Source: Tubiluchus corallicola (Eukaryota > Animalia > Priapulida). Taken from it: DNA of 64,000 bases. Under the pieces are notes generated by a model that saw nothing but the letters and a program-made list of their open reading frames with translations, was not told where the DNA came from and ran no database searches. A program made the position numbers and the translations under genes. Every line of letters starts with the position of its first letter. The first letter of the stretch is position 1. This document shows positions 10,763 through 50,698 of the stretch, in pieces. The stretch covers positions 1,364,001 to 1,428,000 of the forward strand of contig JAQGDQ010000002.1 of NCBI GenBank assembly GCA_030141605.1, read 5' to 3'.

Positions 10763-13700
10763 ATGTATAAAATTGTGGTACTGTTAATTAGCTTAACAGC
10801 ATGTTTTTTCCTAGAATTAAATGCTGATGAAGGAGCATGTCACCAGTTCGCTGGAGGCCATGTGTACCCTCAGGTAAATCCTCATTGGTATTGCTATTGG
10901 ATGTGAAAGTTTTGATTATAAAGTTATAACGATTATTTGGACACTCTCCGCAGTTCACAATGTTTGCAATAGAATAACATTCCAAAATCCCAACATCATC
11001 ACAATCACTCATTCAGTAGGTAATAAGTTCATTTCTTCTATTGCCTGGAAATGTTCTTACCACTGTAATATGTTGCCAACTTCTATAGATTGCCACAGAA
11101 TATTATGATTGGTATGTTGTTTATCCAGAAAAGGCGCAACTATTGAATAGTTAATTTGTCAGTGTAATTTCAAAAGAAAACTGTGAAGAAATGCCAAATG
11201 TAATGCCTCGATACACACCAATACCAGAAGTAGAAGATATACTAGAGATAGAGGAGAAAGAAGTATTAGACGAACTTAAAACACTGAATGTAAACAAACC
11301 GCCTGGTGACGATGGCATGTATGTACCTAAGGTTTTTAAAAGAAGTAAGCTCAGAACTAGTTAAACCACTCTCATTTGTTTTTCGACAAGTTACTAGACA
11401 AAGGGAAGGTACCTGAAGATTGGAAGTTGAGCCAAGTTTCACCGGTCTATAAGAAAGAAAGTAAAAATAATAAGAGCAACCACAGACCAGTAAGCCTAAT
11501 GTGAGTACCTTGTAAAACACTAGAGAAAATTATCCAGAAATAATCACAAGCACATAAAAGACAAGGTATCAAGAACACAACATATATTTATGTAAGGCAG
11601 GTCTTGTATTACTCAACTCTTAGATGTCATCGATTTATGGACCGAAATAATCGATCATGGAACTTGACTTGAGACAATCTATTTTGATATTGCAAAGGCA
11701 TTTGATTCAATCCCTCACAAAAGATTCTTACTAAAGGATACATCAATGGATAGAGTCAAAATCAATAATGCATTCTCAAGCTGAGCACCAGCATTATCAG
11801 GCATTCCATGAGGTAGCGTATGTTTAAATGATATGCCTGATATAGTAGTAAATATTATTAGACTGTTTGCAAATGATGCAAAGATATTCAGTGAAATTGA
11901 CTGTCAAGCAGATGCTGAAAATCTACAAATTAACTTGAACAATCCACAAGAATGGACAGAGGTTTGGCAAATGAGGTTTCATTGTACAGACAAATGTGTG
12001 GTGCTATATGTAAGTCATGATAATATGCGCAATACCTATGGTATGTATAATGATGGAGGATTGATTGGCGTAAACAAAATAGAGAGTGAAAAAGATTTAG
12101 GAGTCATCGTAGATAGTAAACTGAAGTTTGATGAGCACGCTGACATAATTGCCAATAAGGGAAACAAAATAGTCGGAGTAATGAAAGGTTCGTTTGATTA
12201 ACATGGACACCAACATGTTTTTGCACTTATATACCACATTAGTTAGACCAACTTTGGAATATGGTAATATAGTAACGTCACCATTTTATAGGAAGGACAT
12301 CAATTTATTAGAAAATGTATAGCGCAGAGCAACAAAGATGATGTACAGCATATCAAGTCTGGAGTATGAAGATTGATTGTTGACACTGAAACTGCTTTGT
12401 TTAACATACCGTAGGTTTAGAAGTGATATGACAGAAATATACAAGATCACACATGGCTGCTACGACAAACCAATAAAATTGGAACAAAATGAAAAGGGAA
12501 GTAATAAGGGTTATGCGTATAAAACTGGAAGTACAATATAGCAGACTCGACACGAAAACAATTTTTCACAGTAAGAACGCCAGAATTATGAAAAGTTACC
12601 AGAACAGGTGGTTGAGCCACTATCTTTGAATACCTTCAAGAACTGTTTAGATAAACATTTTGGAGTACCGAAAAACACACTTAAAGACCCTAAGGAATAC
12701 CTTTTCAGACAGCCAAAGCTTTTTGCTGAAACCGCGAACAAGTCGATGTTCAAAGAGATATGTTTTTATTTATGTGAAAAGTTAAGCGCTGTTAAGATCC
12801 TCAATAGGCAATATCTTGAAAAAGGACAACGACTGGTAACTGGTAATGTTAAATGGATAAATAAATATTAAATATATTTTAATAAATAAGGTGGTCACAA
12901 TGCAGCTGTCTCAGAAATACATTGATGATGATCATGACAACATTGCCTTTTGTGTAGGCCCATTTGCTGTATGCTAGAAGTTTTGTTGATCCTCTTTAGA
13001 AATTTTAATCATTTAAATGTATGTATTGCTTATCCGTGTAAAAACTAGGCTAGATAACATAGTCTTGACATGGTAGGCGAACTAGTTTAGTAGGTAACCC
13101 ATCCTCGAATCTGTTGCTGTTTTGTGGTTTTTCTCATTCGTGATTTAATTTGCAATTTATCATGATACCTAATCTAATTCTAACAAATGCCATGGTTTGT
13201 AAGCTACATGCAGCAACTGGGCTATAGTGCTCAGTGTTTTTAAAATGATTCAGTACTCATCTGATAACTCAATAAACTTTTGGTTCTAAACGGGTTAGCT
13301 GAGGGTATTTTTGATGTTTTACATTTGTAGATGCTGAATCAGTACAATGGTGCAATGTTGTCTCTGCAATCTCTGCCTATAGGTTATGTTAAAGCTTTGT
13401 CATTTGGCACATACTCCTATGGCAAACTTTTCCACTTTCACGCAAAAATTATGTATAATTTATCTTTGCCAAGACTGTAAATCTTCAATGTCGTATGTGC
13501 TTATCTGCAGAGATATAGGAGTAAATACCTTACAGTGATGTTCAGTAGGAGTGAGCAAACACTACCAGAAACTGAATCGAATTTTTGATTTTCGAATTCG
13601 AATTGTATCAAATTTCAAAATGTTGAATCCGAAACAACCCCGAATTCAGTTTTAAAGATCTTCGAATAAATTTTGAATGACAAAAATAATAATGTAGGCA

Positions 13701-14927
13701 AAAAACTCTGAGATGACGAAGACTGTACATGATTCGTGGCACCACTAATTTACCACTAAGACTATAATGATTGATTTATGTAGCTAAAATTAAGAATCAC
13801 CGCAAAAATTGTTTGCTGCCCTTAGAAATCTAATGAATCTACTTTTACTTATTGTTTTAGGTGATGTGTTTGAGATAAGTGTTATTTTGCATGCCTTAAA
13901 TTGTATGTTTTATTGTGGTGCACAATCTGCAAGTTGTCTCTGATAAGGATACCAAATAAGTATTGGCTTGTACAATGTACAGGTCATGCTAACAATGCAA
14001 GTATTTTCTAAATTGCTATAATGAGTAGGTGGCAGAGTGCAGACATTTGCTAACATTGACTGAATTGCCAATCACACTGCTTATTTCAGTTTTTCAGCAG
14101 CTCACAAAGATTGCATGCTGTTTCAGATATTTTAACGACAGAATGAAAGAAATCGGGGTGTAGAACTATTCAAATTCATAATTTGAGGTTCGAATCGAAT
14201 TTGAATAAAAAAAAATCATCAGAGTAAAAATTTTGTGTTGTGTTAGTTTAATTTGTGTATATATACTTGCATTGCAACTACAAATGTCTTATTCCAGGAA
14301 ACGACAACCACTCAAGGTGGACATAGTTTGACTTGGAGTAAAGCTCAGATTTCTAAACCAGCACCTTACTGGGAAGGCACCGCTGTACTTGGTAAAGAAT
14401 TTGTTGAGCTGAAGCTGTCTGATTACAAAGGAAAGTATCTAGTTTTCTTTTTCTATCCGTTGGATTTCACATTTGTCTGCCCAACAGAAATTGTTGCTTT
14501 TAGTGACGCCATTGAGAAATTTCGCGCAATAAACACTGAAGTTGTTGCTTGTTCGGTAGACTCTCAGTTTACTCACCTTGCATGGCTAAACACTCCACGT
14601 TGCGAGGGTGGACTAGGATCACTCAAGATTCCACTTTTGTCAGATCTAACTCATCAGATTTCCAAGGACTATGGTGTTTATCTTGAGGATCTGGGGCACA
14701 CTTTAAGAGGTCTTTTTATTATCGATGACAAAGGCAATTTACGGCAGATTACTATGAATGATCTGCCTGTCGGTCGATCCGTAGAAGAGACACTACGGTT
14801 AGTGCAGGCTTTCCAGTACACCGATAAGCACGGAGAGGTGTGCCCAGCAGGTTGGAAACCGGGTAGTCCAACTATAATTCCAAATCCCCAAGATAAACTG
14901 CAATACTTCAAAGAAACGGAGAATTGA
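10763..14927 (+). CDS. PRDX4: Peroxiredoxin-4 (typical 2-Cys, ER/secreted), 2 coding exons, ~246 aa
   Basis: Exon 1 10763-10873 encodes [37 protein letters not shown] (signal peptide plus the Prx4-type CHxxAGGxVYP motif) and ends at cag|gtaaat. Exon 2 14298-14927 is phase 0 and carries [13 protein letters not shown] (peroxidatic Cys) and GEVCPAGW (resolving Cys). Confidence 0.95.
11210..12660 (+). mobile_element. Decayed CR1-clade LINE RT region inside the PRDX4 intron
   Basis: Remnant motifs [27 protein letters not shown] (FADD), [14 protein letters not shown]; many stops and frameshifts. Confidence 0.85.
13570..14210. mobile_element. Probable old non-autonomous DNA transposon
   Basis: Clusters of GAATCGAAT/TTCGAAT at both ends, typical of MITE subterminal motifs. 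Exact TIRs not resolved. Confidence 0.3.
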
Positions 14928-18088: not shown

Positions 18089-18109
18089 ATGATGTCAGCT
18101 GACTCATAA
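18089..18109 (+). promoter_or_regulatory. Upstream ORF (MMSADS*) whose stop overlaps the spectrin start codon (TAATG)
   Basis: ATG ATG TCA GCT GAC TCA TAA at 18089-18109; main ATG at 18109-18111; probable acceptor ttttctag at 18066. Confidence 0.45.
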
Positions 18110-21100
18110 TGAGTGGAACAATAGAAACTAAGGTTGGTAAGCGTGGCTCACAGATGCGTGATAGCTACCATGATGATGCAGCAGCTACTCAGCGAATAAA
18201 GCAACTGCAGAGTGAGCGCATTTATCAGCAACAAAAAACTTTTACCAAATGGATGCAAAGTATTTTCAAGAAGGTGATGTATCGTTTAATTTTTTTGGTG
18301 TATTGTCACATAGTGTGCATAGGTTGAGCCTCTTAAGTTATTTTTAAGGATATGTGTACCACAGAAATAGCTTTGTATAATTAAAAATTACGAACAGCTA
18401 CTTTTACAAAGTTGTAGTCATGTTTAATAAGCTGGCTAATCAGTGATTTATCATTGGTGCAGTATTGTGCTCAGTGCAATGGTCTATGTTTGCATTTTGC
18501 TATGCAATTAGCTTGATCTTTTATTGTAGTACTCACATGCTCAACTGTATCAGGAGTTAGCAAGTTACTGCCAACAGCATAATGAGTAGTACAATCATTG
18601 TACGTGTTTAGAAAGTTCCAAGTTACCTATTTTGGCTGTAAAGGCTGAGATTGCAATTGGCAAAAAAATTAGCTCAGACATTTTCATATCCAGTTAAACA
18701 CACTTTGAGAGCATTTGTTATTCATTATTAGCAAGCATCTTTTCTTGTCTTTCAGGCTGGGATAGATTTGAGTGATCTTGACATTTTCAAAGATTTGAAT
18801 GATGGAACACTTTTATTAAGGCTGATGGAATTGATATCTGGTGAGGATGTTGGAAAACCTAATCGCGGCAAAATGAAAGTACAGAAAATAGAGAACCTGA
18901 ACAAAGTGCTTAAATACATTTCGTCAAAGGTATTGAATACTTCTGAAAGATATTTGCAATTAATGATTTTTGTGCAAAAATTGTTATGGTAACCTACCTT
19001 AACAAAAAAATGCTTTTATTATCAAGGAACAATTTTTTGTAGCTTTTGAGAACTATTATTTTTTTATACTTTCTTGAAAATGCTACTTCGCTATTTAGAA
19101 CTATTTTTTGTGGTAGTCTGTCAATTCAAAAACTGGATAATTTATTTAATATTTCTTACCTGTGTTATTTTAATTTTTGAAAAAGAGTAGTGCATTTATT
19201 ACGAGCTGCCTGGATAAATTGACTTAAAATGTTAGTTTGATTATTACTTTCCTATAGTGACATGTAAATAGTTCATTCGGTAATTTGTTCTCCTTTTTAA
19301 TTTTGTTGAAATCTCTGTATGAAAGGTAGGATATTGTACATTCAAAGTTATTAGACCAGTAGCACTCAATTTATACTTGTAGTAGATAATTCTGTAGCTA
19401 TACACACATATATGTAGTCATATACTATTCTTCAGGGTTAAAAAACGACTTTCCATATTCTGAAACCATTCTTCATTGGCAGCTGCTCAGAAAGTCTTTT
19501 GAGCATTCAAATTAATCATGATCATTCATTTAGCCTTTTGTAATCCGTTTAACCTGAGTGCATTGACGGACAAATGTAGGCACATCTCTGCTTTGATGAA
19601 TAACTATAAATCCTTCTTACATACCTTTGTATTGTATCAACAAGATAAGGCTACCGATGACATGCTTTTTAAGTACAAACTGATTAATACTGCTTGCTCA
19701 GTAAACGGTGAACACATTAAATAGGCACTCCTTCAGAATTCTATTCACAAGTTTACTGGCAAGTATGAGTATGCCCCAAATAAAGAATATTATATTCATT
19801 AATAATTGTACTGATTTAATAATAAAATTGAAATCATGTTATTACCTTTTTAAAGTAAAAAATTATTTAGTTGAATTACTTGTCATTTTATATATTTTTG
19901 TAGATTAAAATTTGTGAAAATTTGCCAGTAAAAAATGAAATACAGTACGCATCGTAATTTTAATTTACTGTTACGTTATTTATTTTACAAAATTTAGTTT
20001 ACCTACTTTTCAATGTTTATCTTTTGCTATATTTTATAAATATTTTAAACTTTCTTTTGTATAAACCATTTTTAAGTCTAATTTAAGCAGTTGTTATCAA
20101 AATACAAATTTGAGGTAACTATGTTTACGCTTTTGTTTCTTGACAATAGACGCGGTTGGAGAACATTTCTGCTGAAGATATTCTTGATGGTAATCCCACC
20201 CTTATTCTTGGCCTCATGTGGACTACAATCCTTCGGTTTGAGATTCAAGTTATTCAAGAGAATTTGGTATATTTTAGTACATTTTTAAAACAAGAACCTA
20301 TCATAGATAACTTGAACCTGTTCTTGCGAAAGGAGTTTGATTTTTCTTGTGTTCACAACAGCAACATCGATGATGATAATGCGTAACAGGACTGACCACT
20401 TAGACCCCATTCTCGAAATGGGTCCAGTTAAACATTTTAGAGAACATTTGAGAGGATTGTTGACAAGAAATGTGAAGTTTTTTTTATTTATGTAGGAAAC
20501 ATGACTAAAATGCCTTTATAGTTCATGTTGCTAGAATGTTCTTGATGAGAACTTTGTATGATGAAATTCTGATTAGTCATTTTGGTAAAGCAGTTATAAG
20601 TTTAACACAGATGGCCAGTTTCAATATTATTTTGAATGCTGTGTTGAAAAGCTGTTTTCGATTGTAACGTCTGTCACGTAGTCTTAAGTTATTAGTGTAA
20701 ATTTATTAACTAATGTAATGTGAGTTTTTTATGCTGCAGGAAAGATCGAGAGCTGAAGAAGGGGAAATGACACTGCAAGAACTCGGTGTTGATGAAGCAA
20801 CTCTAGAAGAAATGAAAGTAGGTGAAAGGAAACTTAGGTCTTTCCTTTGTCAGTAGCTTTATACATTTAAACTTGTTTAGATTTACCTGTCCTCAGGCAT
20901 TATTACATTTACTAGCTAAACCCTACAAAAGAATTTTGTGCAAAACCAACAACTATAACCATGTCCCATCTCACCATACCATACCACACCCATCACAACA
21001 TCTACACAACGCCACCCACATTATACGACTTGCACCATGCCATCAACACCATGCCACACCTACCACACCATCCATACCGCACCACATCAGCTCCCCTGCT

Positions 21101-21957
21101 GATGACGATCGTGATAATCATTATGATGACAACAACTTCGGCAGCAACAACAACAAAAACAACCTAGTGAAATCATGTAAAAACATTTTGTGCAATTTGA
21201 AACTGTGTGCAAAAGAAAAATGCTATTAGATCATTCACCAATAATCAATAATGCGCAACATTCTATACATTCTTTGTAGTCTTGGATCACTGATTCCATA
21301 ATGACGATAAAGTAGCCTAGCTTATTAACCCTTAATAGATGTAAGTTTTAAAAGCCAGCTAAACCGAAGCAATCTGTAGGCAGAATATAATGGGTGATGT
21401 CACAGAAAATGAATTGTGCCCTACTCGTTTTGCACTGAGAAAATTGCAAAAAGACCTTGGAATCGTCTTTTTGGGCTAAAGTGGAAGCATTCATAAAAAA
21501 ACCTACATCGTCACGTAGCCCAATTTCTTCTCTTTCCAAAGAGCTGTATATCTCCCACAAAGATCCCAACAGGTGCCGTACGAATATTTTTTTACACGTT
21601 GTTTCATCAATATTTCAGAAAAATTGGCTTGTTGGGTTCAGGGAAACACCCACTGCTGGACAGTTGTCCTTCCAGGAAATCTAAATCTGCCTACTATTCC
21701 CATCCGTTGAATGGGCTATCTTACTACTGCTGGTACCACTCTCCACACTCTTGTTTTCTTGAACTAAGTAGTATAAGTTTAGCAAAAACTGGTGAAAAGT
21801 GACCATTTTTGGAGGTTTTTAGCCTACTGTACCTCCTGGTGGTCTTGATTCGAAAAAATAAACCATCAGTGAGATAACACTAGACTGAGACTTCGTTTTG
21901 ATATGTAGATCACCGAAAATGGTGCAGTCCTTGGAGTTGTAGCCATATAGGTTTCCA

Positions 21958-21995
<38 letters not shown>

Positions 21996-24900
21996 GTAGT
22001 CACTTAATAAAACCACAGATAATAAAAGCAACTGCATTTTAGAACTACTTAGGCAGGACCCAAAATTACTTCCATAGAAACAATTGCTAACAAAAATTCA
22101 GATAATAAAATCAGTGCAACAAAATGTTCAATAATAGGCAACAATAGCAGAATGAAAAAATAAAATGTTTCTTTGGTAGTTTGCGCATTTTTTTATGATA
22201 CGCAGTGAAATTTTCGTCTCGTGTTCTAGATTTGCCCCTTGTTAGTCAAAATCATGCTGAAAGTTAAAGTCCTTAGTTTCAGTTATAACTGTTCTGCATA
22301 TCCAGCTGCTAATAAAGAGCATTTTAGTCTGTTGAATGAACTTGAATGACTATCGTATGCTTGAGTTATTCTGTAGACATGCTAGTGAGCTGACTGCCCC
22401 TCGTCTGTATGAGCCTGTAAGCAAAGTTTTTATATGTAACATGTTGAATTAGGTCAGGCAAACATATTAAATTTTGGATTAATCTTGCCAAATATAGGTG
22501 TTTGCAATAGACCACCACATAATAAAACCACCATTTATTAAGACCACTTATAGATGGTCCTGTAGTGGTTTTATTAAGTGGCGACTACTGCTATCCAAAT
22601 ACCAGCATAATTAATATATGCTAGATGTCAGGTTTCTAATACTCTTAAAAGAAATACAGTAGGCGTCGCTTAATAGACTCACTTTGGGACCAACGTGTTT
22701 TGACCCAGTTAACCAACTGAACCTATTAACCGATGGGTGTAGTATTACAGGTATAGAAGTATAAGTCATCACCTTACTATGCACTGCAAAGGTTTTTAAT
22801 TAATTTTAGACATGTAGTAATGCATAAATTCCTTTGTGCAGTTAAAAACTAGAAAAAATATTTTAAAATATTAATTTATATAAGTGAAATAAATTAAAAA
22901 GTATACTTTTCGAAATCACACAAGTCTGTTTTTTTGCGAAAATTACAAAAATTCCTTCAAAGTCGGCTGCTTCATTTTCTCGCGAAGAAGTTGGCCCACA
23001 AATTATAAAAACATTGGAAATCTGTTGTTGTGCATGACTAAAACAGTTCTGAATTGTCTGCTCACTTACATTGCCTGCATTTGCTGTATGATGTTTACGT
23101 AAGTCACGAGGAATACCTGCTGATTACTGTACCTGCATCTTTGACTGTTAACTGATTAAGCCTGAAAGCGTGATTTGCAACGAGAGCATCAGAAGGAAAC
23201 TGCTAGGCAAATGATTAAATGTTTAGCTTCCAGAAATTCTTTGGGTAACAGTGGACGAGCGGGTAACAGATTCAAAACAAAATCGCTATGCTAGCCTATT
23301 AGTGCATAATAAATGTACCTGCTTATAAACAAAACGGTACTTAACATGATTGTTTCTGTAGACATAGCGCACAAAAGAGAAGTAAAGATGACATAAAGTA
23401 GGAAAGGTTCTTTTGGCACATACAAATATGTTATTTTAAGCAGATGAAGGAAAAATATTGAGTCAATTATGCGGAGTTATTTGAGTCAAATACCAATAGA
23501 TTTACGTATATTTGAATAGAAGCGGCCCGTTCTAGGCGTTTTTGAGTCAATTAAGCGATTAAGTCTATTAACCGTGTATCTATTAAGCAGTGCCTACTGT
23601 AGTAGATTAACTAAAAACTAGAGAAAAGTGTTGACTAAGCTTTTAAGCAAAAGTCATTTTACAACTTTTCTGAAACAATATGCATTAGTTATGTATTTTT
23701 AATTTAATTTAGTATACAAAAATTTTAAAACTGGGGCTCTTAAGCTATTGCCACCAAAAATTTGTTTATTATATCCAGTTACTCGTATAATTTTTGTTAA
23801 GTTCTATAGTTACATTGCAAATTAATAACTCTGTTTGGTATGGCAAGTAAAGTGATTGTAGTTATTGAAATATTGTACTTGCAAACCTTTAACTAATATT
23901 TCACTGCTAGACATATTCCCCACCAAACGAAGTGTTGGTAGAGGATATAGTAGAAATTTATGTATATGCATACGTGTTGTTTGGAATGTTTTATGTTATA
24001 TCTCTGAAGCCACTGAAGCAAGTCTCACATATATATTTTACTAGTAAAAAATGTCACTTTGATTCAAATCATCATTGACTCATCATTGTTTCAAACTTAT
24101 TGTTTTGAGTTATATTTTTATGGCCAACGTAATTCCACATGATACATGGATGATACTAGTGGAAGAAAGGTTTGCTGAGGTGCACTTGACTTGACTTTGA
24201 ATCATAAAAACCATAAGGCTCTGTGTTGCATACAAAGATTTTGTTGATATTTTCATGGCCACTGAGGTCAAGCCAGTCAAGCTTTGGAACAAAGGTACCA
24301 AGCCTGTTAGGGCCAAGATTGGTATGGTACACTTGGTGTTGACTTTTATCTTAAAGATGGTAGGGCCTCGTATTATAACTTCTGTAAACATTTTAGATGA
24401 TTCACTTTTTATCATTTTTTAACATTTTTAGAAAAAATATCCAGAGCTGTTTGGGACTACTGATGCAGTCCAGCAAGCACTAGCAGAGTTGTATTTATCA
24501 ACAGTTGACCTTGACACAAAACTTGGAGATCTTCCTCCAGTTCTTACCCTCCGTGACCTTGGTGTAAAGGATGATAATCTTCCCGAGGGAGCTTCACCGC
24601 ACACAACTCTTGCTGATTTGCCTGCTGAGATGACTCTTCGCGATTTAGGATTTACTGAGCATGATATGCCTGCAGTAAAAGATAGAATACATCGTAGCTG
24701 TTTAGTTCACTGTGGATTAATTTACCAAGATGTGATGCCTAACACGTTAAACACCAGTACAACTTTAGGTGAACTTCCTCCAGATATGACATTACGTGAT
24801 CTTGGCTTAGATGAAAAACAACTAGCAAAAAATGTTTCTCCTGATATAACGTTGAAACAACTATCGTCAGAATACCAACTGAAAGATTTGGGTTTTAAAG

Positions 24901-27900
24901 ATGAGGAATTGCCAAAACTTAGGGATTCTGCAAACAGGTCTTACCAATTGAGACACGAGCCAATATATGCCAATGTTGTGCCAGTTAACATAAATACAAA
25001 AACGATGATGAAAGAACTGCCACAGGATTTGGAAGTGCGAGACTTAGGGTTGCATAAAAAGAACATCCCTAAGGAATACTCTGATACTATGCTTTTAAGA
25101 GAGCTACCCCCAGACATGACTTTAGCTGAGTTGGGTGTCCTAAAAGAAGATATTCCCAATGTTCAGAGAAGTGCTAATTTGAATTACACACTGCGCCATG
25201 CACCAGTTTATCGAAATGCTATTCCGGCAGATATTACGCAAGAGACATTAGTTAGCATGTTTCTAGAAGATATGACATTGAGTGATCTGGGAATAACAAA
25301 AGAACAACTTCCTGAAGCTGTGTCTACAGAAACAACTGTTCGAAATTTACCAAAAGGCATGAAAGTAAGAGACTTGGGGTATGATGCCAAAGACTTGCCA
25401 GTTGTCCGGGAGCATGCAAATGCTACTTATCAATTGAAGCACGGACCAGTCTACAGTAATGTTTTACCGGCAAGTCTTAGTCCTGAAACTAAAGTAACTG
25501 ATCTTCCACAAGACCTGACACTGAGAGAAGTTGGAATCAAAGAGCATCAGGTACCTGCCAAGGTTTCCCTGGACACTAATTTAGAAGAGATGCCAAATTT
25601 TATGACGTTAAAAAGCTTGGGTGTTGAAAAGGAAGACATACCTCAGATTCGAGATTGTGCTATGCATTGTCATCAAGTTAAAAATGGTCCCTTATATTGG
25701 GACTGCTTGCCAATTGAGATGACTCCTGACACGAAACTGAAAGAATTGCCACAAGACATGACTTTAAGGGATTTGCAAGTGATTGAAGTTCCTGCAGGTA
25801 TGTCTGCAGATACCATGCTGTGTGATCTTCCAGGTAATCTCACCTTACGTGACCTTGGATACACTGAAGCAGAAATACCTCTGCTGAGGCAGCACGCTAA
25901 TCAAAATTATCAACTTCGTCGTGGTCCTGTAATAGTCACTGAGTCAACTGCTGTGCATCAGTTGCCACAGAAATTAACCTTGGGAGAGATTGGCTTGTCA
26001 GAGGAGCAGATAAAGCAGCTACCAGGCAGTGTCACACAGGAAACAACTTTAAGCGAGCTGCAGCAGGACCTAACACTTGCTGATCTTGGTAAGTTGTACG
26101 TGATTTTAATTAAAAAATTCTAATTAATGTATTATTAACACTGTCATTTATTGTATTATCTTGATTTGCATATTATTTTTTGGGTCTAACTTTGTGCAGG
26201 CTTGACTGACTTACTGTGATAGCCATAGAGTTGTTGTTTATTAACAGTCATTGGGTTTATAAATTATACTACAAGCAGCTTCAATCTTCTGTTCTTGTTA
26301 CATACTAAGAAATTTCCAAACATTTTTATATACTGGTTTTTTCTTTTACTTACTCTTACTTCTGGAAACCAAAGAAAAGTTTGTGAATTACTTTTGAGCT
26401 AGTTTCTTGTGAACATTTTAGTGAGTTGTCCAAGTATAAAATTCCCCTTGTTATTATCTCCTCTTTTATGTAGTTAAACCCCATTACTGATGTACATAAT
26501 ACTTTGCCTTGAAAATTTCCCATTTTATGTTCCTGTTAAATTTTAAAAACTTGGATTCTTGCAGTTAGCCTGAAATATACATTTAGACTCACATTATCGA
26601 AGTATTGCTGTAGTCTAATTGTAGCATTAGGTAGGATAAAATGCATATTTTTGAAACACCAATTTGTTTCAGTCTGGTTGTTTAATTTATTCTATTTTAT
26701 GTATCTACTAAGTATATGTAGTTTTGTACAAATTATTTTTATTTTCTAAGTAATTTTCTAATACTAATTTCTGTAAGGCAAAACTGGGATCCTGTGCAGA
26801 CATTGCGAGTTACAGTGGTTCCTTTTTTGTCTGGCACAGTATCAACATAAAATAATATCTGTTGGTTGAGTTATTTATCTTTGCACTTTTCTAGCATAAC
26901 TTTATTTGCTTTAGACCTTTGGAATGCAAATGTAACAGTGAGTAATCTAGGGATTTATATCAGTAGTAGCATTTTATGAAAGTAAACTCGCGCTACCCTT
27001 TTGAGTACAGTAGGCTTGTTTCAAAAACAAATGGTGTAATGGAAATCTCTCATTTTGCTGCATTTTAATTGTTAGCAAAATTTGGCACTGATTGTTAATT
27101 TACTGGTGAAGAAATTGCAATTGAAATAATTAAAAAAAATTGTGTGGGACATTTAGATTAAGCATAATCTGAATTAGTGCATAAAATTTAATTCATTGGA
27201 AATAATACCCGGACATGGTAAGGTTTTTTAAGTAACAGCTTTACCTACTAAATGATTAGTGTTTGTGATAAGTGTCTGTGTGAACCTGACTCTCTGCGTG
27301 TCTCCCACACCTGCATCTCCTGTTTGCATTGGGTGCTAACTCGAGTGGAGTTAACTCTAGTTGGTAATGAGTTGGTGATCATCTTGAGGACCAAGATATA
27401 ATTACCTGCGCTCAGGAGTGCGCTGCTATGTAGGTAGTGAGTACTCAATGGGTTTGCAGACACGGCTGCAAAGCCCTACCCATGTGCTTTTGCAACAAAC
27501 GAATTTAGATGGTTCCGGGCCATCTGTCTTTCTACTCGACTGATATCACACCCATTTTTGTAGGCTTCGAGGTTTGTGACCCTCTTGGCCCAAGCCAGCT
27601 CTTTATTCCACACCGGTGCCGATGCACTCATGCTCACCAGCGAGTCTGGCGAGGCTTGCATACGACTGAGCATCTTGACCTTCATCAGAGGCACATCCTC
27701 TTCAAGACAAGAAAACCCTATTCTGCCCTTTTTCATGGACAAACTCATTTGATCCAAGAACAGGTTGAAATTTGGGGCCTTCAAAAACATAGAACAAAGT
27801 TAATGGATTTAGAGATTGAAGAGCCTTTTTGACGTTTTGTTTTTCTGTGAAAAAAGTTTTCTCTGTTTTGTATACAGGTGTCAATGAGGTTGACGGTGTA

Positions 27901-30900
27901 CAAAGAGTAAAAAGCGTTGCTAATCCCGACCCCATTGCGACGAAGTACTCCGCTGTGGAGCTTTCTGCTGATATGAAACTTTCAGAGCTGCCTGAAGGTG
28001 TTTCAAAGGAAATGCTGGGCATTGACGAGGAAACTTTGAATAAATACATTGTAAGTTGCTAAACAAGTAATACACTTGTTTAATTATAAATCAATCTATG
28101 TAAGCATGGTTTAAATGCAACTTTTATTAAACGTGGCTGTTCGAATATACTGAAAAAGATAACATTACATATATTGATTTTGTTAGTTTACTGACTTATA
28201 GGAATGTATAATTTATGAGACCAGAGCATGATGTTAGATCTAGTAAATTTTCCTTCAAGTGAGTAGGTATTGAGTTGCACAAACTAACTTGTCTTACTTT
28301 AACATTAATGTAGGCAGAGAAACCAGAAGGCAAAGAAAAACAATCTGCAAAAGAGGCCCTCTTGATGTGGTGCAAGTCTAAAACAGATGGGTATGCAGAT
28401 GTTTGAATGGCTTTCTTTACTGTAATAGTTTATTGTATTTGAAATGTATAATATTTTTGTGATACGATGCTAAATTTTGAAGGCAATGATGACGACATTG
28501 ATAGGAATTACTGGAACACTACAAAGACAAAATTTTTGGTAAATCGCTGGACATAATTAAGATTACAAAAATACAGTTTATCAAAGTAAATTTGGTACTA
28601 GTGCATTGCATGTGAAAGGATGCAGCCTGTACGTTTGCTGCTTACACATAACGCAAATGCTTAATTTTGATTTTTTATAACTGCTTAACTAGGCATGAAA
28701 ATTGTGAAGTGCAGAATTTCTCTCAAAGTTGGAATGATGGTATGGCTTTTTGCGCTCTTATTCACACTCATAGGTAAGAAATATTTGTTACTATATATTT
28801 CTGAAATTATACCAATTTCATACTTACTATATTTAATTAAAAACAAATAGTATTTTCTTGCTTAGTGTCACATGACTAATTCTGGGTTAGTATTTTTTCT
28901 ATGTAGAATAACACTAATTGACAGGACCCAATTATTATGAGGTGGTTATGTTAGACTAAAATCGGGTAATTGGTATCTCGCTATGATGGGTAATCCTTTA
29001 AAATGAGACATCGAACTAACAAACGTATCCTAGTTGTGTTTAGCTATATGTGCACCCTCCTTATTCCAGATAAATTGGCAGGGTGGTATGGCAGATGTGG
29101 TCGCCTAAAATCAGCTATGTTAAAATCCTTAAATTGTTATTTTATGGAATTCTGTGCTTTACTGTTTTGGTTTCCCTAATTTCAGGCCAGACTTAATTGA
29201 TTACGACTCGCTGGATCCAGAAGAACGGGTTAAAAACCTAAACTATGCGTTTGATATCGCAGAGCAAGAACTGGGTATCCCACAATTGCTTGACGCAGAA
29301 GGTAATTAAGGAAGCTGACACATGCAGTAAGTCCTCATTTAACGACTCCCAGTTTAGCGACGTTTATTTTAACAATGCTGAACATTAGACACCTTTTTTC
29401 ACTTCACGACACACATTTCATTTTAATGACGATTTTTTTACTTTGCTGAAAGCCAATTTGCATTTTATCAACAACTTTTTTACTAAATTTGAAGCATTAA
29501 AACAGCACATATTGCGTTATTCTGTTTTGAAAGTGCAATAGTAACATAAACAGTGCAATTATTATATATATTCTTGCTTCCCGCCTGACTAATACTATAC
29601 TAGCTGCCATTTCTATCAAGCAACCAGACTATGTAGTAAATGATGCAGTGCTCTGGAATGATAAAATTTCCAAGGTCACCTCATGCAGCGCTTGGGTTTG
29701 ACTCTGCAATGTTTATTGTTTAATGTATGCCTAGGCTTAAACCGTAATGAAAGAGAAATGCTAGACAGGTACATATTGGTAAGAAAGATAAGTGGTTTCA
29801 AGCAAGCAGAAAGAAATTAATTAGTAGAAACCATAAAGAAACTCATAAAACATTTAACTGATGTGATTTAAGCAGCATTGAGTTTTGACTCTGGAACATA
29901 CTTCAGTTCTTTTACATTATTTTCTGTGGAAGTTTTGGTTTCGTTTAACGACGTTTCCCTTAACTGCGCATTTTGCTGGAACACATTTGCATCGTTAAGT
30001 GAGGACTTACTGTACATCAGGTTGTTGTAAGTGTAGTTAGCTTTCTAGCTTTGCCTCAACAGGAGGTTGTATTCAATTTGTTTTACGATGTTAGGTGTGC
30101 ACCATGCAACATTTTTGTACAAAAAATTGTCTGGGTTGTTTATTTTGTTCATGGTAACAAACTAATACGTAGATAAGCAAAGGGTAAATAGCTAATAGCT
30201 CTTTTGCTTGATCAGTTTTAGATTATTCATATTCTGAGTTTGCCAGTTGGGTAGACCTGTTTTGTGAACTGTTAACATTACTTTATAGAGATAATAAAAT
30301 ATTGTGGATGTAAACCTAATTTGCTGAAATGCTAAAATTAATGTTCTCGTGTGATCTGTGTTGTCATTGGTGTTATAATTATTCTAGTGGTCTACCATTA
30401 TGCTTCTAGTTCAGTTGTTACTATGACATTTTTAAAGTACCTTTTAGACAATCAGTTTTTTCATCAAACTCGTTTGTCATTTAACAAACTAATTTGATCA
30501 TGTAAACACCGAAACTGACAAACTTTTAATTTGACAAATGAAGTTTGATGATATCAAACCGTCTTCAATTCATCAAACAAAAACTGACAAACTCAGACAC
30601 AACAGTCATTTGTGCACTCGTGACATCATACTGACTGTTCATTTTCGTGCATGTAGGAAGAAATTAATAACAACTAAAAACTACAGTTGGGTCTATTGTG
30701 AAATTTAAATCGGCTCTAGGGGTTCTTTCACAATGGGATTGAATGTCAGATTAACTGCATAATTTGCACAAATGTTAAAGTGCACATATCAAAACTGACT
30801 TTGAAGTACACATTTCCTTCAAATTGCTCTTATTGGATAAAATTTTTCAAAGTGATCTCGTTTTTTTCTTAATGTTGTCGTTATTAATTCAAAAGGACGG

Positions 30901-33900
30901 TATAAATATGCATCAATCAGCATTATTTGAAGCTGGCTGACACTGGGACCTGGAAGGTAGAAGCGGTAGTAATAAAAAGGAAATTCTGATTTTGCTGTAC
31001 TGTTTTCTACCAATTCAACTAACGAATTTGTGACAGTACTGTAGATGTGTTATACAGGCATTGCTTAGTTTGTGTTTAGCTTCATGAATCATGGCTTCCT
31101 TTGAGGATCTAGTCAAAAATTGCGGGTGTAACATATGTATATAATTCAAAAGTCACTCGGCACCTCAGTTTTTAGCTCTCTCAAAATCAGGCAGTAGCTC
31201 TCCCTTTCGATTCTTCGCTGTAGTCGTTTTTCATCCAAACTTTTCTAACTCTTTCCAATTTCTCGTTTTCTAATTGCACAAGCTAGCACAACAGGCAATA
31301 AAGCATCTTCACATGTTGGCACCATAAAATTTGATGTCACCTCTAAACACGTATCATTTGTTAGATTGACGGTTTTTGTTTGTCAGTTTTAGTTTGACAG
31401 TTTAAAAACTGGTCGTGTAAATGGACCATAAGTGATCTTACCTGCTACATGATTCTACTAAAGGTTGCTTTTCCTACTAATGATTTTTGAGAGTAAAAAT
31501 GGTGTTTGCTATCAAGTTCAAGTCCAAATAAATATTAACATGATATTTTATACCTCTACAATGCTGTTTAGTTTCTCATAGACCCTTTACAGATATGCCT
31601 AAACTGCTTTATGCATTAACGACAACAATAATAATAAAAAAGTAAACACTTGCAAGATTGGCTGTGCTCCCACTGCACATGCATTTGTGTGAATTTATTT
31701 GAGCTCTGTATTTATAGGCTTGGTGAGAATGTAGTTTTAGCAAATGAGTTTCAAATACAGCTTTATTTTTTCTGTTACAGATGTGGCTGTTAAAAGACCA
31801 GATGAAAAATCTATTATGACATACATTGCCTCTTATTATCATACATTTGCTAAAATGAAAGACGAAAATACAAGCAGTAAACGCATTGGCAAGGTAAATG
31901 CTGATGACTTTAGACTAGCCACTGTTTTTAATCATAATTGAGATAATTGCCATTTATCAGTAATGGTGTGTGTATCTTTGTTTATTAATTGTTGGCGATT
32001 CATTTCAAGTCTTCTTATCAGTGCAAAGTAACATCATGCAGATTATGAACAAATATAAGTTTTTTTAATGCTTGAGATAAATTTGATATGACATCTGAAA
32101 AAACGTCAATTACATTCATGGATCAAAGTTGCATGTTGAGTTATGTTTACTTTGACTAAAAAACTCAGCATCAGTATGTATCAATATAATGCAATAAGTT
32201 TATTTTAAAATGTTCTTACTTTTAAAGGAACTTGCCCAAGTCAGTATGGCTTGCGTACTGTCCGCAGGCCCATTCAAAGAGTTTCCTGTAATTTTATTCT
32301 TTTTGTGTCTTGTTTTTATTCAAAGTTGTGACTAGCACTGTTCACATGAGCAATTTGAAATTTAATGAATTTTTGTTAACAAAAACCTGTATGTTTGGCT
32401 ATAGTTGCTTTTTGGCTGTATTAATTATTAGCCTTAGGTAAAAGTTTGTTGCATTTTAGATAGTAAATTTCATGATGGACATTGACGAACAGAAGGAAAT
32501 TTATGAACAAAGTGCCGACGAGTTATTAAAATGGATTCAGAATAAAACTGCTGAGCTGAATGATCCCAGTTTACCAAATAGCATGGAAGCTACACACCAA
32601 GAACTTGCAAAATTCCACGATTATATTAGAGTTGAAAAGCCACTAAGGTTATCTGAAATCTTAGTTTATAATATTACTATTTCTTGAAAAAACTTTTTAA
32701 AAACCACATTAAGTCTGCTATTTAATATTTTTGCATGAAATGATATTATTATTGTTATTGTAGAGTATAGAGAACAGATTTAAAATTCATTCTGCACAGC
32801 TTTATAGTTTATGCCAATGGTCTTTCATTTTTACTTACATTTTGTGTACACTTACTTTCATATATGACTGCCTTTGTGACAGTCATATGCCATTTTCATG
32901 CACGTAATTGTGTACAGAACAGGTATAGGTCACTTATTGATACTAAAGTTTACCACGGCTAATATAGCTTAAGTCATTCGAAAAAATACATCACTTCAAA
33001 AATGCGAAAATTTCATCATGGTAAGTAAAGCTTAAGTTGTTTTTAACGTTTATTCTGAACTTTTTTTATTACAGAATGTTGTGCAGAACACTTCATTATC
33101 ATTAATCTTTCATTGTGCACCACTATAAAAAATTTTTATTCATTACAGATACAAGGAGAAAGGCGAACTTGAGGCACAACTGTTTGACATCCAGACAAAA
33201 CTTAATGCAGAGAGTCGTAGTTACTATCAACCGCCTGAGGGAAAACTTGTTAGTGATGTTGAGAAAGCTTGGCAGCAATTGGAGAAAGCTGAACATGCAC
33301 GTGAAGTTGCTCTGCGAGACAACCTAAGAAGGTAAGTGTCACATTTATTATTGCCAATCAGTCCCTTCATTGTGTTAGTATCACTTTATTTAATCATTGT
33401 CAATCATTTGATTTTTTCCATCATTAGGGAAGAAAAATTGGAACAGCTAGCTGAGAAATTTAATAGGAAGGCAGAGCTTAGGGAGTCATGGCTTGCTGAT
33501 CAGAACAAGATCCTTGATAACATGCCTATCGGCGAAACGGCGAAAGAAGTGGAGTTGGCAGCAAAGAGACATGTAACCATGACAACTGAAGTTCTTGCGC
33601 GGGTACGTTTACTTTGCTATGGCTTCCTGACTGCTAAGTTGTATTTGGGAAGCATGTAATGGCAGGCGTATTTGAGACTGTCCATAATCCTTCAGTAATT
33701 CACATTTTAAAAATATTAACCCTACAGTATTTATGTTGGGGACAATAGTATTGTGACACCCTATGAATATACAGAAGTGTTATATCTGACTCCTCCTTAT
33801 AGCTAGGATTACTTTCCAGTTAAGAAAATATTTTTAATGATTCCGAGAGGACAAGAAGCCTTTTCTTAAGAAATTAGTTTTTAATATTTTTTAAACCAAG

Positions 33901-36900
33901 CTGGGCATCAGTTTACTTATAATAATTATAGTTTAATTATAGACATTCTTATTTTAGTTAAGTAAAGTTTCATGAAACAAATTTAGACAATATTAGCTCC
34001 ATTCTTGCTGGCTTTCGTTTGTCCTTCTAACAAGTTTTGTCAGATTAGTATCAGTAGTAATCAATGAAATTCAATTTTTTGGCTATTTGTTTTTGATTCT
34101 GGTTCACTGACTAATAATCAATAATGGTCTGCAGATGATCTGTTGTGATTTGTTAACACATAAAGTGTCAGTCAAGGACAAATCTATTTGTTTTACACTC
34201 ATTTCTATTTTTGCTTTTTTTATTAATGTAGAAAGACAGATTTGATTTGCTGAAAAAAATGGCAGAGCATCTTGCAGAGGCAGATTACCATGAGACAACT
34301 GTAATTAAAGCAAAGTAAGTTACTTCATGAAATGTTTAGTTGTTTGTATGAATGATATTCTATTTAAAATAAACTATTTGGGATTATTTTGTTTTGATTT
34401 TGATGGCCATTGGGCTTCCTTATTATATAATTTCCTTTTGTGGCTTTCACACATGCGTCTGGTAACGAACTCTTCAGTGCCGTTAACATTTTGCAAAAAT
34501 TGTTATTCCAGAAGTAATAGCAAAACAAATTACTGTACTTGCTATGAAGATATAATTGAATGTATGTCTTTATCTTAAAAACAACTGTACGATTAGCTTG
34601 TCAGTAACAAAAAATTTGCTACAATAATTAGAAATGAGAGGTTCTGTTGTAATGGACTCGTAATGAATTAAGACAGTTAGGGCTATTAAGACAAGCAACA
34701 GTTTTTGTAGTAACTCAATATGAATATAAATATGAATAACTCAACTTAAGTATTTCTGTCTTAAAATACTCATTACTCACCTCAGTTATTGCATACTTTT
34801 AAATTTGGTTTTAGTGACAGTGTTTTTTAAGAGAGATGATGCAAAGTACAGATTTGCTTATAAGTAGCACTTAACAACAAATGCAGTCTGAAAAAACTTT
34901 ATAACTCAAGATTTTTTTTTATTATTTTGGCAATAATTGCACCCTGTGCATAAATACTGAATAAACTCTACTGTACCACTTCTGTTGGTCACTAAACCTA
35001 TGTAATATATTTGACTACTTTGCTGTATTGGTGTATGCTGTATTAAATTTACACATGAAAAATTATATGTGTGCTTGTATAGCAAAATCGTCAATAAGTC
35101 GGCAATTAAGCTTTTCTAGCTATTCATATGTCCTGATTCTCCATTTCATGAGGATCATTTTGATACCCAGCTTATCGCACGGTATTATTTCTAAGCTGAG
35201 ATAATCCACAATGAAGTTGAGGAGCACGCTACACAGTGAAAAACATAATCTTGAGAAAATCGCAGTTAAAGTTCGCCATTGTTTTTTGTCGTGTTTCTTC
35301 AAAACATTTAGCAACCGTACTAATGTTGGTTGCTACTGACTTTGCAAGAACTCGTTGAAGTTATGTTTAAATCTAGTAGATGGCTCTTCCTGATGAAGAC
35401 CTGGGCTTGGCAACGGAAAAAACCCGAAGCAAAATGACTGCTTCCACGAGCTACTATCGGCGTTTGAAAATACGAGTTTTTTACAATTGCAGTACTAGTT
35501 TCTAGACAGAAAAGTGGGCACGGGTTTAATAGATTAGATTTTTAGTATTTCTTAAAAATTTTCTTGACAATCTAGTGCTAGAATATTAAAGTCCAATATA
35601 TTTAGAGTTTGTTTTTTAAAAACCAGAAATTGGCATTTGACCACTCTGCTTTCTAGTTTGAAGCATTCTACTTTGAAGCATCATAACGTAGTTTTAACTA
35701 TGCCAACTTATGGATGGTTTTGGTTTGCAAGCACACATATGAAAAAATTGCCAGAATGCATGTTTTTATTTAGTTTATTACTTTACTTTACTTAATTAAA
35801 TTTCAGACATGAAAAGATTGCAGATGAATGGCATAGCCTGCTGCTTAGAATGAATGAAAAACAAAATAGTCTGGACAATGTAAACTCTGTCATATCACTG
35901 ATGAGGGACATTGATAGTCTGAATTCAGAAATGAAACATTTGGAGGTAATGTTTTGTTTATTCTCATTTTCTTTTCTACATTTATGTTTCTCCTGTAACT
36001 TTCAGGGCAAGTGCTAGTTTTTAAGCTGTGTGACAGGATAAGCTTTTTTGCTACTGATGAAGAATATAAGTGATGGCATCAAAAATAAGTACATAATAGG
36101 ATATCTTACAGAAATAGTCACTAAAAATGTTTCTACTGGGTTGCTGATCAGAATTTAGATTGTAACTGAGATGTTTCTCCTTAATTTTTATAGCAAAATT
36201 AGTTTACAAATTAAAGCAGTCAGTATTTAATTTAGTCGTTTTAAAAACTTCTTGTCACATTTCTTGCCAGGAAGCCATTATTTATAGTTCTGAAGTTTAC
36301 TTTCAACCAGTGCTTTCCAGTGCGTGTTTCTCTACTATTTTAAATTGCTGAAAATACAAATGCTGGCTTTGTATAATTGCTTTTTTTGTCACTGAAACTT
36401 TTGGAAAAAATAAATGACAACATGTGAAACAGTTTTAAAGATTCTTCTTAGTTAACACAGCAAACAGTGAGGGAACTAATTGTGATATAAACCCTTTTAT
36501 AACTGTGATTTATCAGAAATGTTTGTCATTGCAGCCTGGTGTAGACTCTAACGTAATGGGCAATGAACTTATTGCTGCTGATCATTTAGTTGAGAAACAT
36601 GCCCTCCTTGACAGCGAGGTCAAATCAGCCGGAGAAAAAGTGAACATCTTAATTGAAAAAGCTGAAAAATGGACACAAGAGAATCCTGCTCTAAAGAAGG
36701 AAATTGAAAGAATGGCAGACAATTATGCACTGTATGTTTTTTTTTACTAAATTGGCTTATCTTTCTATGTCATTTGAAGACTGACAAAATGGAAAAATTT
36801 CTTTAACATCAATTTCAAAATTTTCTGATTTGCAGACTACTGTAAATTTTGCTTTGACACTTCAAGAGTTTGTCTATTGACACTACTACTAGTGCTGCTT

Positions 36901-39900
36901 TATAATATAAATTAATAATACACTTTTCCCTAGTTCTTCTTAAAAAAATAATTATGCAATTTCTCTGTTATATATGATAACAGGTTAAATGCAAAAAGTG
37001 AGAAAAGGAAAGCTGATTTGGCAGAGGCATATGCTTATTACAAGCTTGTGGATGATGCGGAGCAAGAGGAAGCTTGGTTAGCTGAAAAACAGACTTGGTT
37101 GAAGCAAGCTCCGGAACCCAGCCGAGATATCTATGCCTTGTACAGGCAGCTACAGGCACACGATGTATGTGATGCAATAATTTTATTTCTTTTAATTTTT
37201 AGTTTATTTTTGGTGTAATCTAGAGTTTAATCTATACTATTTACATCTATAATATAAGCGTATAGGTAGAGTTCGTAATAAAAGAGTATGAAGAGGCATG
37301 TGAAAGGGAAAGGCTAGATCGATAGATTGAATATTTTAATTTGCATTGCATTCTAGAGTGGCATTTATGTAGCATCCGGATGCGGATGTAGATGCGTTTT
37401 TCACCTGCGGAATAGAGTGCGGAAAAAACAATAGGAACAGCTGCAGAAAAAGAATAACACAAATACGGGCTGCATAAATGGGTGCATTGAAAACAATAGA
37501 AACCGATTTTATCTATTCCGTGCCTCCCAAAACGCATCCGCATCCAGATACTACATAAACACTTCTTTAGCATGTATAATATGTTCTAAAATGCTTCACA
37601 ATAAAAAATGCAAAGAGTAAAGACTACAAAAAAAATAAGAAACACCACTACAAAAATTCAATATGTAACAAGATCGTACACAGGCACTAAAATCAGATTT
37701 TCTAAAATATTTCATAATAAAGATCCAAAAAAATAAAAACACACATTTTAAAATTCAATTTATAATAAAATCAGACTAAACTCGCGTGTTAATTGAAAAT
37801 AAGATATTGACAATATCGACTAGCCTAGGAATCTGACTAAACAGCTAAGTTTTAAATTTTGATTTAAAACTGCTGAGGTTACTGCACATGCTAAATTCAC
37901 GAGGAAGAGCATTCCAGTAAGTAAGAACATAGTATCTAAATGATTGCTTTTGTACCACAGATAATGTTGAAAGAGGTTGATACAGAAATGGACTACTGTT
38001 ATGTCTTAAACCATGAGAGTTGGGTTGTGTTGGTAGACAATGTCATGTATGTGTAATTTGGAGTCTGATTGTTAAGTATTTATAAACGATAACCAGAAAT
38101 TTAAGTTGTATTCTAAATTTCACAGCTAGCCAATGTAAATGATGTAGAACTGGTGTGTTGTGGTCGCACATACCTGTACATGATATTTAATGTACAGCTG
38201 AGTTTTATACATGTTGAAGTTTTAAAATATTGTATTCCGGCAAATAACAGATGTTGCTGAAAAAACTGTTACAGTAGTCTAAATGGGAATGCACCAGGGC
38301 GTGGACAAGAATGATAACTGAATCACGACTAAGAAATCCTCTAATCTTTCCCAAATTATAGTTACAAAATTGGCCTTATTGCAAACTTCAATGATATTTT
38401 TGTTGAAACAGGATGTATGTATATGAACTAATTTGTTTCTTGACTACTTTGTCAATGTTGGCTAGAATAGAATGACTACACTTTGCCTTGTTTTTTATTT
38501 TTAGGCAGTGGAGGCTGAGATGCAAGCACATGCTCCAGTAAGTAACACTATCTGTGTGATGGGTTCACGAATGAATCAAACCAGTTATCCGCTCCGTGCA
38601 GCCGAAGTCAACAAACACATGAACATCTTGCAGGAGGAATGGCACAAACTTAAATCGTCTGTTGCTGCTAGGAAGATTAAGTTAGAAGATGCGCTGGAAT
38701 CTGCCCAGGTAAATTATTGATAATGTCAATCTTTAGGTCACAGGCTAAATTCACCTGTCCTGTTGAATAATGGCTAAATTGACCATTATAGTTATCAGTT
38801 TATTTGCCAACAATTGAATGTGCATGTTTTTTATTCATTTATTTTTACCCATTTTAGGTATGTGAAAATTGGGGCAGACTCGTTTTCCTAGAAAAGTTTT
38901 TTGCCAGAAAAATTTTTCCCCCAACAAAAAAAATTCACAGAAAACTTTTTTTACTTCCCAAAAGAAAATTTCCCAAAAAAGATATTTCCCAGAATTGCCA
39001 GTTCCTAGAATTTTTTTTTCCCTGAATCGTCATGTCATGGAACAGAAAATTCACAGAAAATGTAATAAATCTTTTTAGATAATGTGCAAGAAAAAATATT
39101 TTATTTTAACTACGTGTATTGATTAATAGGGAACATATAATAATAAAAATGTTCAGATCTTTAGGCAAGAAATTAGATTTGTAACATCAGAACTATTAGG
39201 TAGTGAATAGTGTTGATCTTTGCATATACCCAAGAATGAGTGATCATGGTGTGCCATTCGCTACCAAAGTTAAGCAATGCCAAGCCTTGCAACTGATTTG
39301 TTGGTAGACCGCTTGTAAATATCAGTCTTGGGCAGTTATTTTTATTGTGATTCCAAATTATTTCATTAATTTCATTGTTTAGAGAAGATGAACATGCATT
39401 CGAATGTGACTGTGACTTCTCAGTCAGCCCAGTATTTCATCTCAGAGGATTATCTTGATAATGAACTAGGATCTGGTCCTGCCATAAAAGAACTCCTAAA
39501 AAATCTTCTGATGGAGCTTAATTTATTGGGCAAATGTTGACCCCAAGTCGTTAACAAATTTGTGTGGTTTGCAAAGCCTTGGTGTTTTCATTTTTTATAA
39601 TTGTTAGTTGTAAAATATATTTCAAATCCTAGGAAAATCAGTTTGGAGTGATTACATGCAGCAAATGATACAATGCCAATTACTGTCAGAAATCAATGTT
39701 ATCTTAAAACCAAGTTTAAATTGTAGCAACAAGTTTCAAAACAAAATATTTTTTTCAAAACATAATTAAAAAACAAGGTTGATAGGCATTATTTAAAGTG
39801 CTGTAGATAACCAAAAGATAGCAAAAAGAGAAAGAATTAAAGGTATAGAGTAAGGGGAAGGGGAGTGAGATGGGGAAGGAGAGAGAATATGAGGAAGAGA

Positions 39901-49949: not shown

Positions 49950-50420
49950 TACATACATTGTGGTAAGTGGTGCTGCATTAAGTGTCTGGATTACAGTAAG
50001 GATATGTATGAGAAGGCTAAGGATAATGAATTTATTTGGTGCTGCTCTGACTCCTGCAGCTACGAGGCGACAACAGCATTAAAGTTTGCCAAAATTCTAG
50101 AAAAAACGTTTGAAGACCTGACTTTGATAATGGAAAAGAAATTGTCATCTATTACAGCTGGTGTTGCCATGGAAAAGCTCATTTGTCGACTTAGTAGTGA
50201 GCATAACAATGATGAAACTCCTGAAACACCAAACAATAAAATGGTTAAGAAAAATGGATGATGCCCACACCAGTAGCAAAATTGCTCAAGTGATGCACAG
50301 TGATGAAAAAGAAGAAAGAGAGAAAAGGAGAAAGAAATCTGATTGTCTTCAACATGCCAAAGTGTGATGCCAAAGAACTGGACTCGTGTAAAGTTTATAA
50401 TGCCACAGTGTTTTAATATA
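49950..50420 (+). mobile_element. Decayed LINE ORF1 fragment (PHD-finger type, CR1/L2)
   Basis: ..MYEKAKDNEFIWCCSDSC (PHD C-terminal half), a coiled-coil segment, then EEREKRRK; frameshifted. Confidence 0.5.
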
Positions 50421-50698
50421 AACCATAGAATTGTGATTCACGCTGAGAACACAAAGTGAAATGCTGTTGGTATACAAGGCTCTACTCTTAATTTTTTATT
50501 TTACTGCAATAAGCTTGCTTATAAACTTGCATTTTAAAATTTCTGAAGTGTATTTTCAGAATTTGCGTGATAGTTCATAAAATAAGTCAGTGACAGAGTT
50601 TGGTCTAAAATGTTTCTGGAGTTGTGAAGACAAACCAGTTCACAGAAATGTTTGTGTGAGAATGTGAAGGTGACTTAGTTTTTTGTTAATCCTTTAAT

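Follow-up and report, generated by a model that had tools for sequence, protein, structure and literature searches.

All beta-spectrins are described as beginning with a CH1/2 domain, which is followed by the dimer site (PMC13545430). In beta-III spectrin the L253P mutation, which opens this domain, raises actin affinity up to 1000-fold (PMC5676748). In utrophin a looser linker raised the affinity, and bulk added on CH2 lowered it about fivefold (PMC6938246), while the isolated domain of Shot was less selective once CH2 was removed (10.1101/2023.01.18.524359). Among the spectraplakins, MACF1a3 and Shot C lack CH1, several promoters being used (PMC3352950), and macf1a of zebrafish is made both with and without exons 35-39, one of which measures 7 kilobases (kb) (PMC5605089). 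Here we analyzed a 64-kb stretch of DNA from Tubiluchus corallicola (contig JAQGDQ010000002.1, positions 1,364,001 to 1,428,000; hereafter the window), whose forward (+) strand carries the 5' portion of an animal spectrin gene. The real finding is a conserved repeat domain in the CH1-CH2 hinge of this gene; the phase symmetry of the insert, to which the initial annotation had drawn attention, is in itself ordinary.

The gene resembles the beta-heavy spectrins in its tandem CH1-CH2 domain, its spectrin repeats, an SH3 domain in repeat 5, the same linker intron, and a spacing of 16 residues between CH1 and CH2 when the insert is skipped. It differs from them in a domain of 636 amino acids (aa) between CH1 and CH2, which is absent from 118 loci listed from a scan of metagenome contigs for the motif at the CH1 end (a motif-biased sample). 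In addition, its linker is decayed, its branch is long, and only five repeats were found in the window. With the spectraplakins (MACF1a3 and Shot C; MACF1b and Shot B) it shares extra sequence within a spectrin-superfamily gene; internal promoters are known there to give CH1-less forms, and some giant exons are known to be optional. MACF1a3 and Shot C, however, replace CH1 and have no insertion between the CH domains, and the optional giant exons, which code for plakin repeats, belong to the rod; by its repeats the window gene is not a plakin. The opened domains of beta-III L253P and of a utrophin-filamin linker chimera are similar in that parting CH2 from CH1 gives a higher actin affinity. 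Those cases are point mutants or short linker swaps, whereas a folded insert of 636 aa could also hinder binding. Finally, five conventional beta-spectrins among the listed loci (L008, L041, L044, L099 and L106) have uninterrupted CH1-CH2 linkers of 44-87 residues. These are a natural lengthening of the same linker, but they are ten times shorter than the insert, of low complexity, unrelated in sequence, and belong to the conventional beta clade. No CH1-CH2 insert of such a kind was found in the literature searched, which mostly excludes subscription papers.

The repeat domain and its relatives

The insert comprises three putative exons, all on the forward strand, between exon A, which ends CH1, and exon G, which begins CH2. 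Exon B (20740-20817; 78 nucleotides (nt), 26 aa, phase 0-0) encodes one degenerate half-repeat. Exon E (24432-26088; 1657 nt, phase 0-1) encodes six units of 81 aa (29 + 52) and a tail. Exon F (27878-28050; 173 nt, phase 1-0) lies only 263 nt before exon G. Together they make 636 residues open in the spectrin frame, and joining A, B, E, F and G within the whole model gives an open frame of 1518 aa. A half-unit profile ranked B second (expectation value 0.003) and F third (0.046) among 3548 six-frame segments, and no further copy of the repeat was found within the window. Exon E runs for 552 codons without a stop, and the G+C content at third codon positions (GC3) is 0.335 in the insert versus 0.375 in the spectrin core. 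The repeats are acidic, with 105 Asp and Glu residues versus 64 Lys and Arg.

A profile search of 1.84 billion proteins gave seven matches, three of which (P0001-P0003) are true relatives; P0004-P0007 were dropped on inspection as unrelated repeat proteins. P0001 is 45-46% identical to the insert and carries E and F in a single frame. P0002 (48%) and P0003 (59%) both list a contig of 3816 nt, probably one and the same. The units follow each other in the same order, six of six in P0002 and P0003 together and four of six in P0001. The single frame of E and F in P0001 and a break between units 3 and 4 in P0002 and P0003 place introns of the insert at different positions in different genomes. Exon F matches the end of P0001 (expectation value 6e-10), and the homology stops where F stops; P0001 continues there with V, a GTN codon, as would be read at a donor common to both. 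Beyond this V, the sequence after the F donor is unconserved between the window and P0001. Judged from these comparisons, the insert is real coding sequence, and we infer that P0001-P0003 are linked to spectrin as well.

Searches for a longer fused relative were negative: none was found among 7991 candidates of 967-2760 aa (a weak search by the tool's own note), and a search with exon A plus one codon gave four candidates, none of which scored. A metagenome scan with exon E gave 18 pattern matches with none confirmed, and the insert profiles matched none of 19842 six-frame segments of the listed loci. Assignment to a known family was also attempted. The Pfam family ADH_Fe_C scored 31.8 with exon E (cut-off 27) and only 15.1 with P0001, and was judged to be a sum over repeats; a possible likeness to the SAM domain was supported by neither family nor fold searches. 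Predicted models of exon E (predicted local distance difference test 68.8, predicted template modelling score 0.30) and of one unit (74.5 and 0.55) gave no Foldseek match at an expectation value of 0.001 or better. A search of the ESM Atlas with the repeat gave no usable match, and the best Z in a wide fold search was 2.6, no clear match, which does not establish a new fold.

Exons E (24432-24446) and G (28314-28328) both open with three residues followed by PE. The LG of the repeat stands ten residues before the end in B, F and P0001 alike, and the tails of B and F align in donor register (score 27 at offset 0, against 7 or less for 17 other exon tails). Together, the PE starts and the matching tails are a weak hint that duplication gave rise to the B-E and F-G junctions.

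The spectrin gene and its ancestral linker intron

When 20267-28313 is omitted, 19 exons between 18109 and 43347 (+) give an open model of 882 aa containing CH1, CH2, five spectrin repeats and the beginning of an SH3 domain. The N-terminus and CH1 are encoded by the first two coding exons (18109-18273 and 18756-18929), with an Atlas CH match of 0.95. Exon A (20150-20266, 117 nt) carries the end of CH1 and the first six linker codons, and exon G (28314-28390) the last ten linker codons and the beginning of CH2. The other CH2 exons are at 28693-28773, 29186-29301 and 31781-31893; eleven exons (32460-42117) encode spectrin repeats 1-5, and the last spectrin exon found in the window (43213-43347) contains the SH3 beginning inside repeat 5. 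The tandem CH1-CH2 domain is thus present at the N-terminus of the model without the insert and split when the insert is included.

An SH3 domain within repeat 5 is the mark of beta-heavy spectrins, which have about 30 repeats and a C-terminal tetramer site. In the window gene the SH3 stretch matches only L036 (expectation value 8e-7) and L052 (0.003) among the frames of the listed loci. Identity in repeat 5 is 57-58% to these two and does not exceed about 42% for the remaining rows displayed; among the listed loci they are also the closest matches of the whole model (43% and 41%). In a tree of 34 rows, from which the linker was excluded, the window protein groups with L036, L006 and L052 (support 92/79, not starred) on a long end branch of 1.09. 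We call it a spectrin of the beta-heavy type, the class of karst, SMA-1 and SPTBN5.

The model ends inside the SH3 domain at a GTAAGT donor (43347). A search of the last 20.6 kb (43348-64000) found no spectrin exon, and the same search recovered the known upstream exons. This end could reflect a long intron or a misjoin, or the gene could be a truncated paralogue. The intron 41436-42027 apparently begins with GC (after AAG); it is in frame in the model.

The initial annotation placed both flanking splice sites (donor after 20266, acceptor at 28314) in phase 0 and stated that direct splicing leaves 16 residues between IQ and SAK. Both statements were confirmed: the donor reads GTATAT, the acceptor follows TAG, and the spacing is 6 + 10 residues, with the frame open through the 882-aa model. 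The 118 listed loci show where this intron comes from. The linker is uninterrupted in 74 and interrupted in 44. In 38 of the latter, a GT donor stands exactly six codons after IQ, the position found in the window; 32 of these donors read GTAAG or GTGAG, and of the 38 loci 32 are distinct and 36 are closer to beta-heavy references. Where the next exon was within reach (19 loci), the spliced linkers measured 15 (11 loci), 16 (7) and 17 (1) residues, across introns of 65-1906 nt as compared with 8047 nt in the window. The uninterrupted linkers measured 13 residues in 40 loci (including L042, probably a read-through artefact), 7 in 12, 14 in seven, 16 in six, 15 in two, 17 and 23 in one each, and 44-87 in five. 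In solved structures, human beta-III and the 8iah beta chain have linkers of 13 residues and alpha-actinin-4 one of 7. By this comparison, 20267-28313 is the old phase-0 intron of beta-heavy spectrin genes, and 16 residues is the usual spacing of the beta-heavy type.

The insert exons are symmetric overall because the flanking sites belong to an intron older than the insert. Any in-frame exon gained there would be in phase 0 at both ends, and the symmetry is therefore silent on constant versus optional inclusion. Phase 0 is also the commonest donor phase across the gene (12 of 19). That skipping keeps the frame is correct, but it is forced by the ancestral intron, and the argument that the symmetry indicates a splicing switch carries no weight. 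A switch is possible, though that argument lends it no support.

The description of the skipped form as a normal linker stands for its length; it fails for its sequence and charge. The 16 residues share only 4-6 positions with the 13 distinct 16-residue linkers of the family, which share a mean of 11.1 (minimum 7) among themselves. The net charge is -1 versus -5 to -7 in the family, the acidic cluster having gone. Identity to L036 and L052 is 0.38 and 0.31 in the linker, the level of the rod, versus 0.60-0.63 in CH1 and CH2. Linker position 4 is Glu in the window; among 60 distinct linkers, Asp or Glu occurs there only in the five of 44-87 residues. No near-identical pair of loci with differing linkers was found among the listed loci.

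Proposed inclusion of the insert and its alternatives

We put at about even the chance that the insert is mainly included in the transcript. Three observations lean towards this reading: the decay of the skip linker, introns that differ in position inside the insert between genomes, and splice sites equal to or above the core medians. The acceptor and donor scores are 7.8/5.2 for B, 8.1/7.9 for E and 8.9/5.7 for F, the core medians being 6.9/5.6; the acceptor of exon G scores 5.5. The scoring matrix was derived from no more than 17 donors and 17 acceptors. The B and E acceptors are in phase and stand at the 98.6th and 99th percentiles. We infer that the three exons, lying in the old linker intron, are spliced in the order A > B > E > F > G, and that this form is the dominant one; skipping might persist as an in-frame minor form.

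With the insert included, CH1 would be separated from CH2, and an open actin-binding domain is predicted. CH2 is normally a hindrance to CH1, and affinity for actin rises once the domain opens or its linker is loosened. By analogy, a tighter grip on actin is predicted, together with a longer reach from the rod; the acidic repeats might act as a spacer or as a new binding surface. An included insert would most likely keep the domain open and set CH1 at a distance from the rod.

Several facts weigh against predominant inclusion. The length of the skip linker and the residues immediately before SAK are preserved. So are a W in CH1 and a K in CH2, which we take to be the closing latch; their preservation would fit a skipped form that is used. 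The role of this latch is described in PMC6938246. The decay of the linker may also be overstated, because the protein evolves fast overall and the loci were picked by a conserved motif beside the linker. Moreover, the five long linkers with Asp or Glu are not independent, because they probably form one clade: three of the five loci were in the tree, where they group together next to L061, which has a 13-residue linker. A CH domain joined to the repeat was found in none of the seven profile matches. No splice junction occurred in the reads and contigs of runs X1 and X2, neither of which bears on expression: the X1 contigs run through exon-intron borders, as DNA, and X2 has no spectrin exon and matches intronic repeats only. 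A profile test of the B-E junction gave no advantage to the direct join (-9.1, versus -3.6 and -1.3 with a mini-exon), and it had no discrimination. Finally, large extra exons of related cytolinkers are alternatively spliced (PMC5605089).

The last point would suit a regulated cassette, as the initial annotation proposed, switching between the 16-residue linker and the 636-residue insert, with B alone as a third form. We regard this as possible but somewhat unlikely. Skipping, B alone, E + F and B + E + F are all open in frame, the linker length and latch residues are kept, and the donor at 20266 (score 3.9) is below the core median of 5.6. The ends of B and F share one repeat register, as expected of duplicated exons, and the macf1a forms described above offer a precedent. 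On the other hand, the symmetry is inherited and uninformative, and the skip linker is decayed. Alternatively spliced cassettes tend to have weaker splice sites, a tendency that is not strictly defining, and the insert exons do not have sites weaker than constitutive ones. Partial inclusion, as annotated, would keep the frame for B and not for E or F, either of which breaks the frame by itself: a phase-1 intron joins the two, so that they are usable only jointly and their skipping must be coordinated. As for the internal phase-0 junctions proposed at 20817, 22416 and 23937, only the first, the end of exon B, stood. The candidate mini-exon behind the 22416 donor (22377-22416, 40 nt, +), which uses the better acceptor, has a stop at its third codon and is unsupported; to be in frame, the donor has to pair with a GAG acceptor at 22390, which scores -10.1 (12th percentile). 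The 27-nt candidate at 23911-23937 (+) is in frame with a score of 5.5, at chance level: it ranks eighth of 133 candidates in its intron and falls below the best chance candidate in three of four control introns (13.7, 11.1, 11.0 and 5.0).

An extension of such a cassette, in which splicing would set the actin grip in three steps (no insert, 26 residues, or some 610-636 residues built of 81-residue repeats with a new fold), is a tentative and rather doubtful proposal. If it were true, it would provide a natural and reversible form of the opened high-affinity state that is known only from disease mutations.

A further explanation, which the initial annotation missed, is that an internal promoter makes the insert an alternative N-terminus on CH2, giving a CH1-less spectrin that binds actin weakly, and that transcripts with CH1 always splice 20266 to 28314. 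This is a known design of the spectraplakins mentioned above. Of the two joins, it requires just the 3' one (the F-G side), which is also the only one backed by a relative, and in-frame ATGs occur within exon B, shortly ahead of it, and at 22357, upstream of the donor at 22416. The strong in-phase acceptors of B and E are at odds with such a start, the decay of the skip linker is left unexplained, and no first exon was identified. We consider this explanation unlikely.

Much less probable is a separate nested gene on the same strand, ending at the stop four codons after 28050. The relatives were found only as proteins lacking a CH domain, and the search of 967-2760 aa proteins, weak as it was, gave no fused form. 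P0001-P0003, however, look like frames called on genomic contigs, in which a CH domain is not expected; the sequence past the F donor is unconserved with P0001, and B, E and F are all in phase with the spectrin. Least probable of all is that the frame is dead, or stems from a mobile element, and is skipped every time: the intron does contain high-copy repeats, but the 552 stop-free codons, the protein identity of 45-59% and the conserved unit order in other genomes, the core-like GC3 and the single copy in the window make this a very remote prospect.

Other features of the window and significance of the insert

The high-copy interspersed repeat in the linker intron lies at approximately 22650-23600, where the summed X1 contig depth reaches 5000-6300. 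The X1 contig over exon B (20389-21939) has a mean depth of 99.9, versus about 4-20 for its neighbours. This may reflect a repeat at the contig end or a multi-copy segment; no second contig covering exon B was found in X1.

About 3 kb upstream of the spectrin gene lies a two-exon peroxiredoxin gene (10763-10873 and 14298-14927, +; AhpC-TSA) with a likely signal peptide, which we presume to be Prx4. By eye, a decayed reverse-transcriptase-like stretch (11300-12700, +) was recognized in its intron. Downstream of the last spectrin exon, a Cys-rich frame of the long interspersed nuclear element kind (49950-50437, +) was also identified by eye and had no Pfam match. A frame for a rhodopsin-family seven-transmembrane receptor (52810-53565, -; PF00001, expectation value 1.6e-18) runs on the other strand and may sit within a long intron of the spectrin gene.

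Tandem CH domains are treated as compact units, the opening of which controls actin affinity. A wild-type spectrin with a hinge domain of 636 residues, conserved in several genomes, would put this steric model to a natural test, and the repeats of the insert would present a new repeat family to solve.

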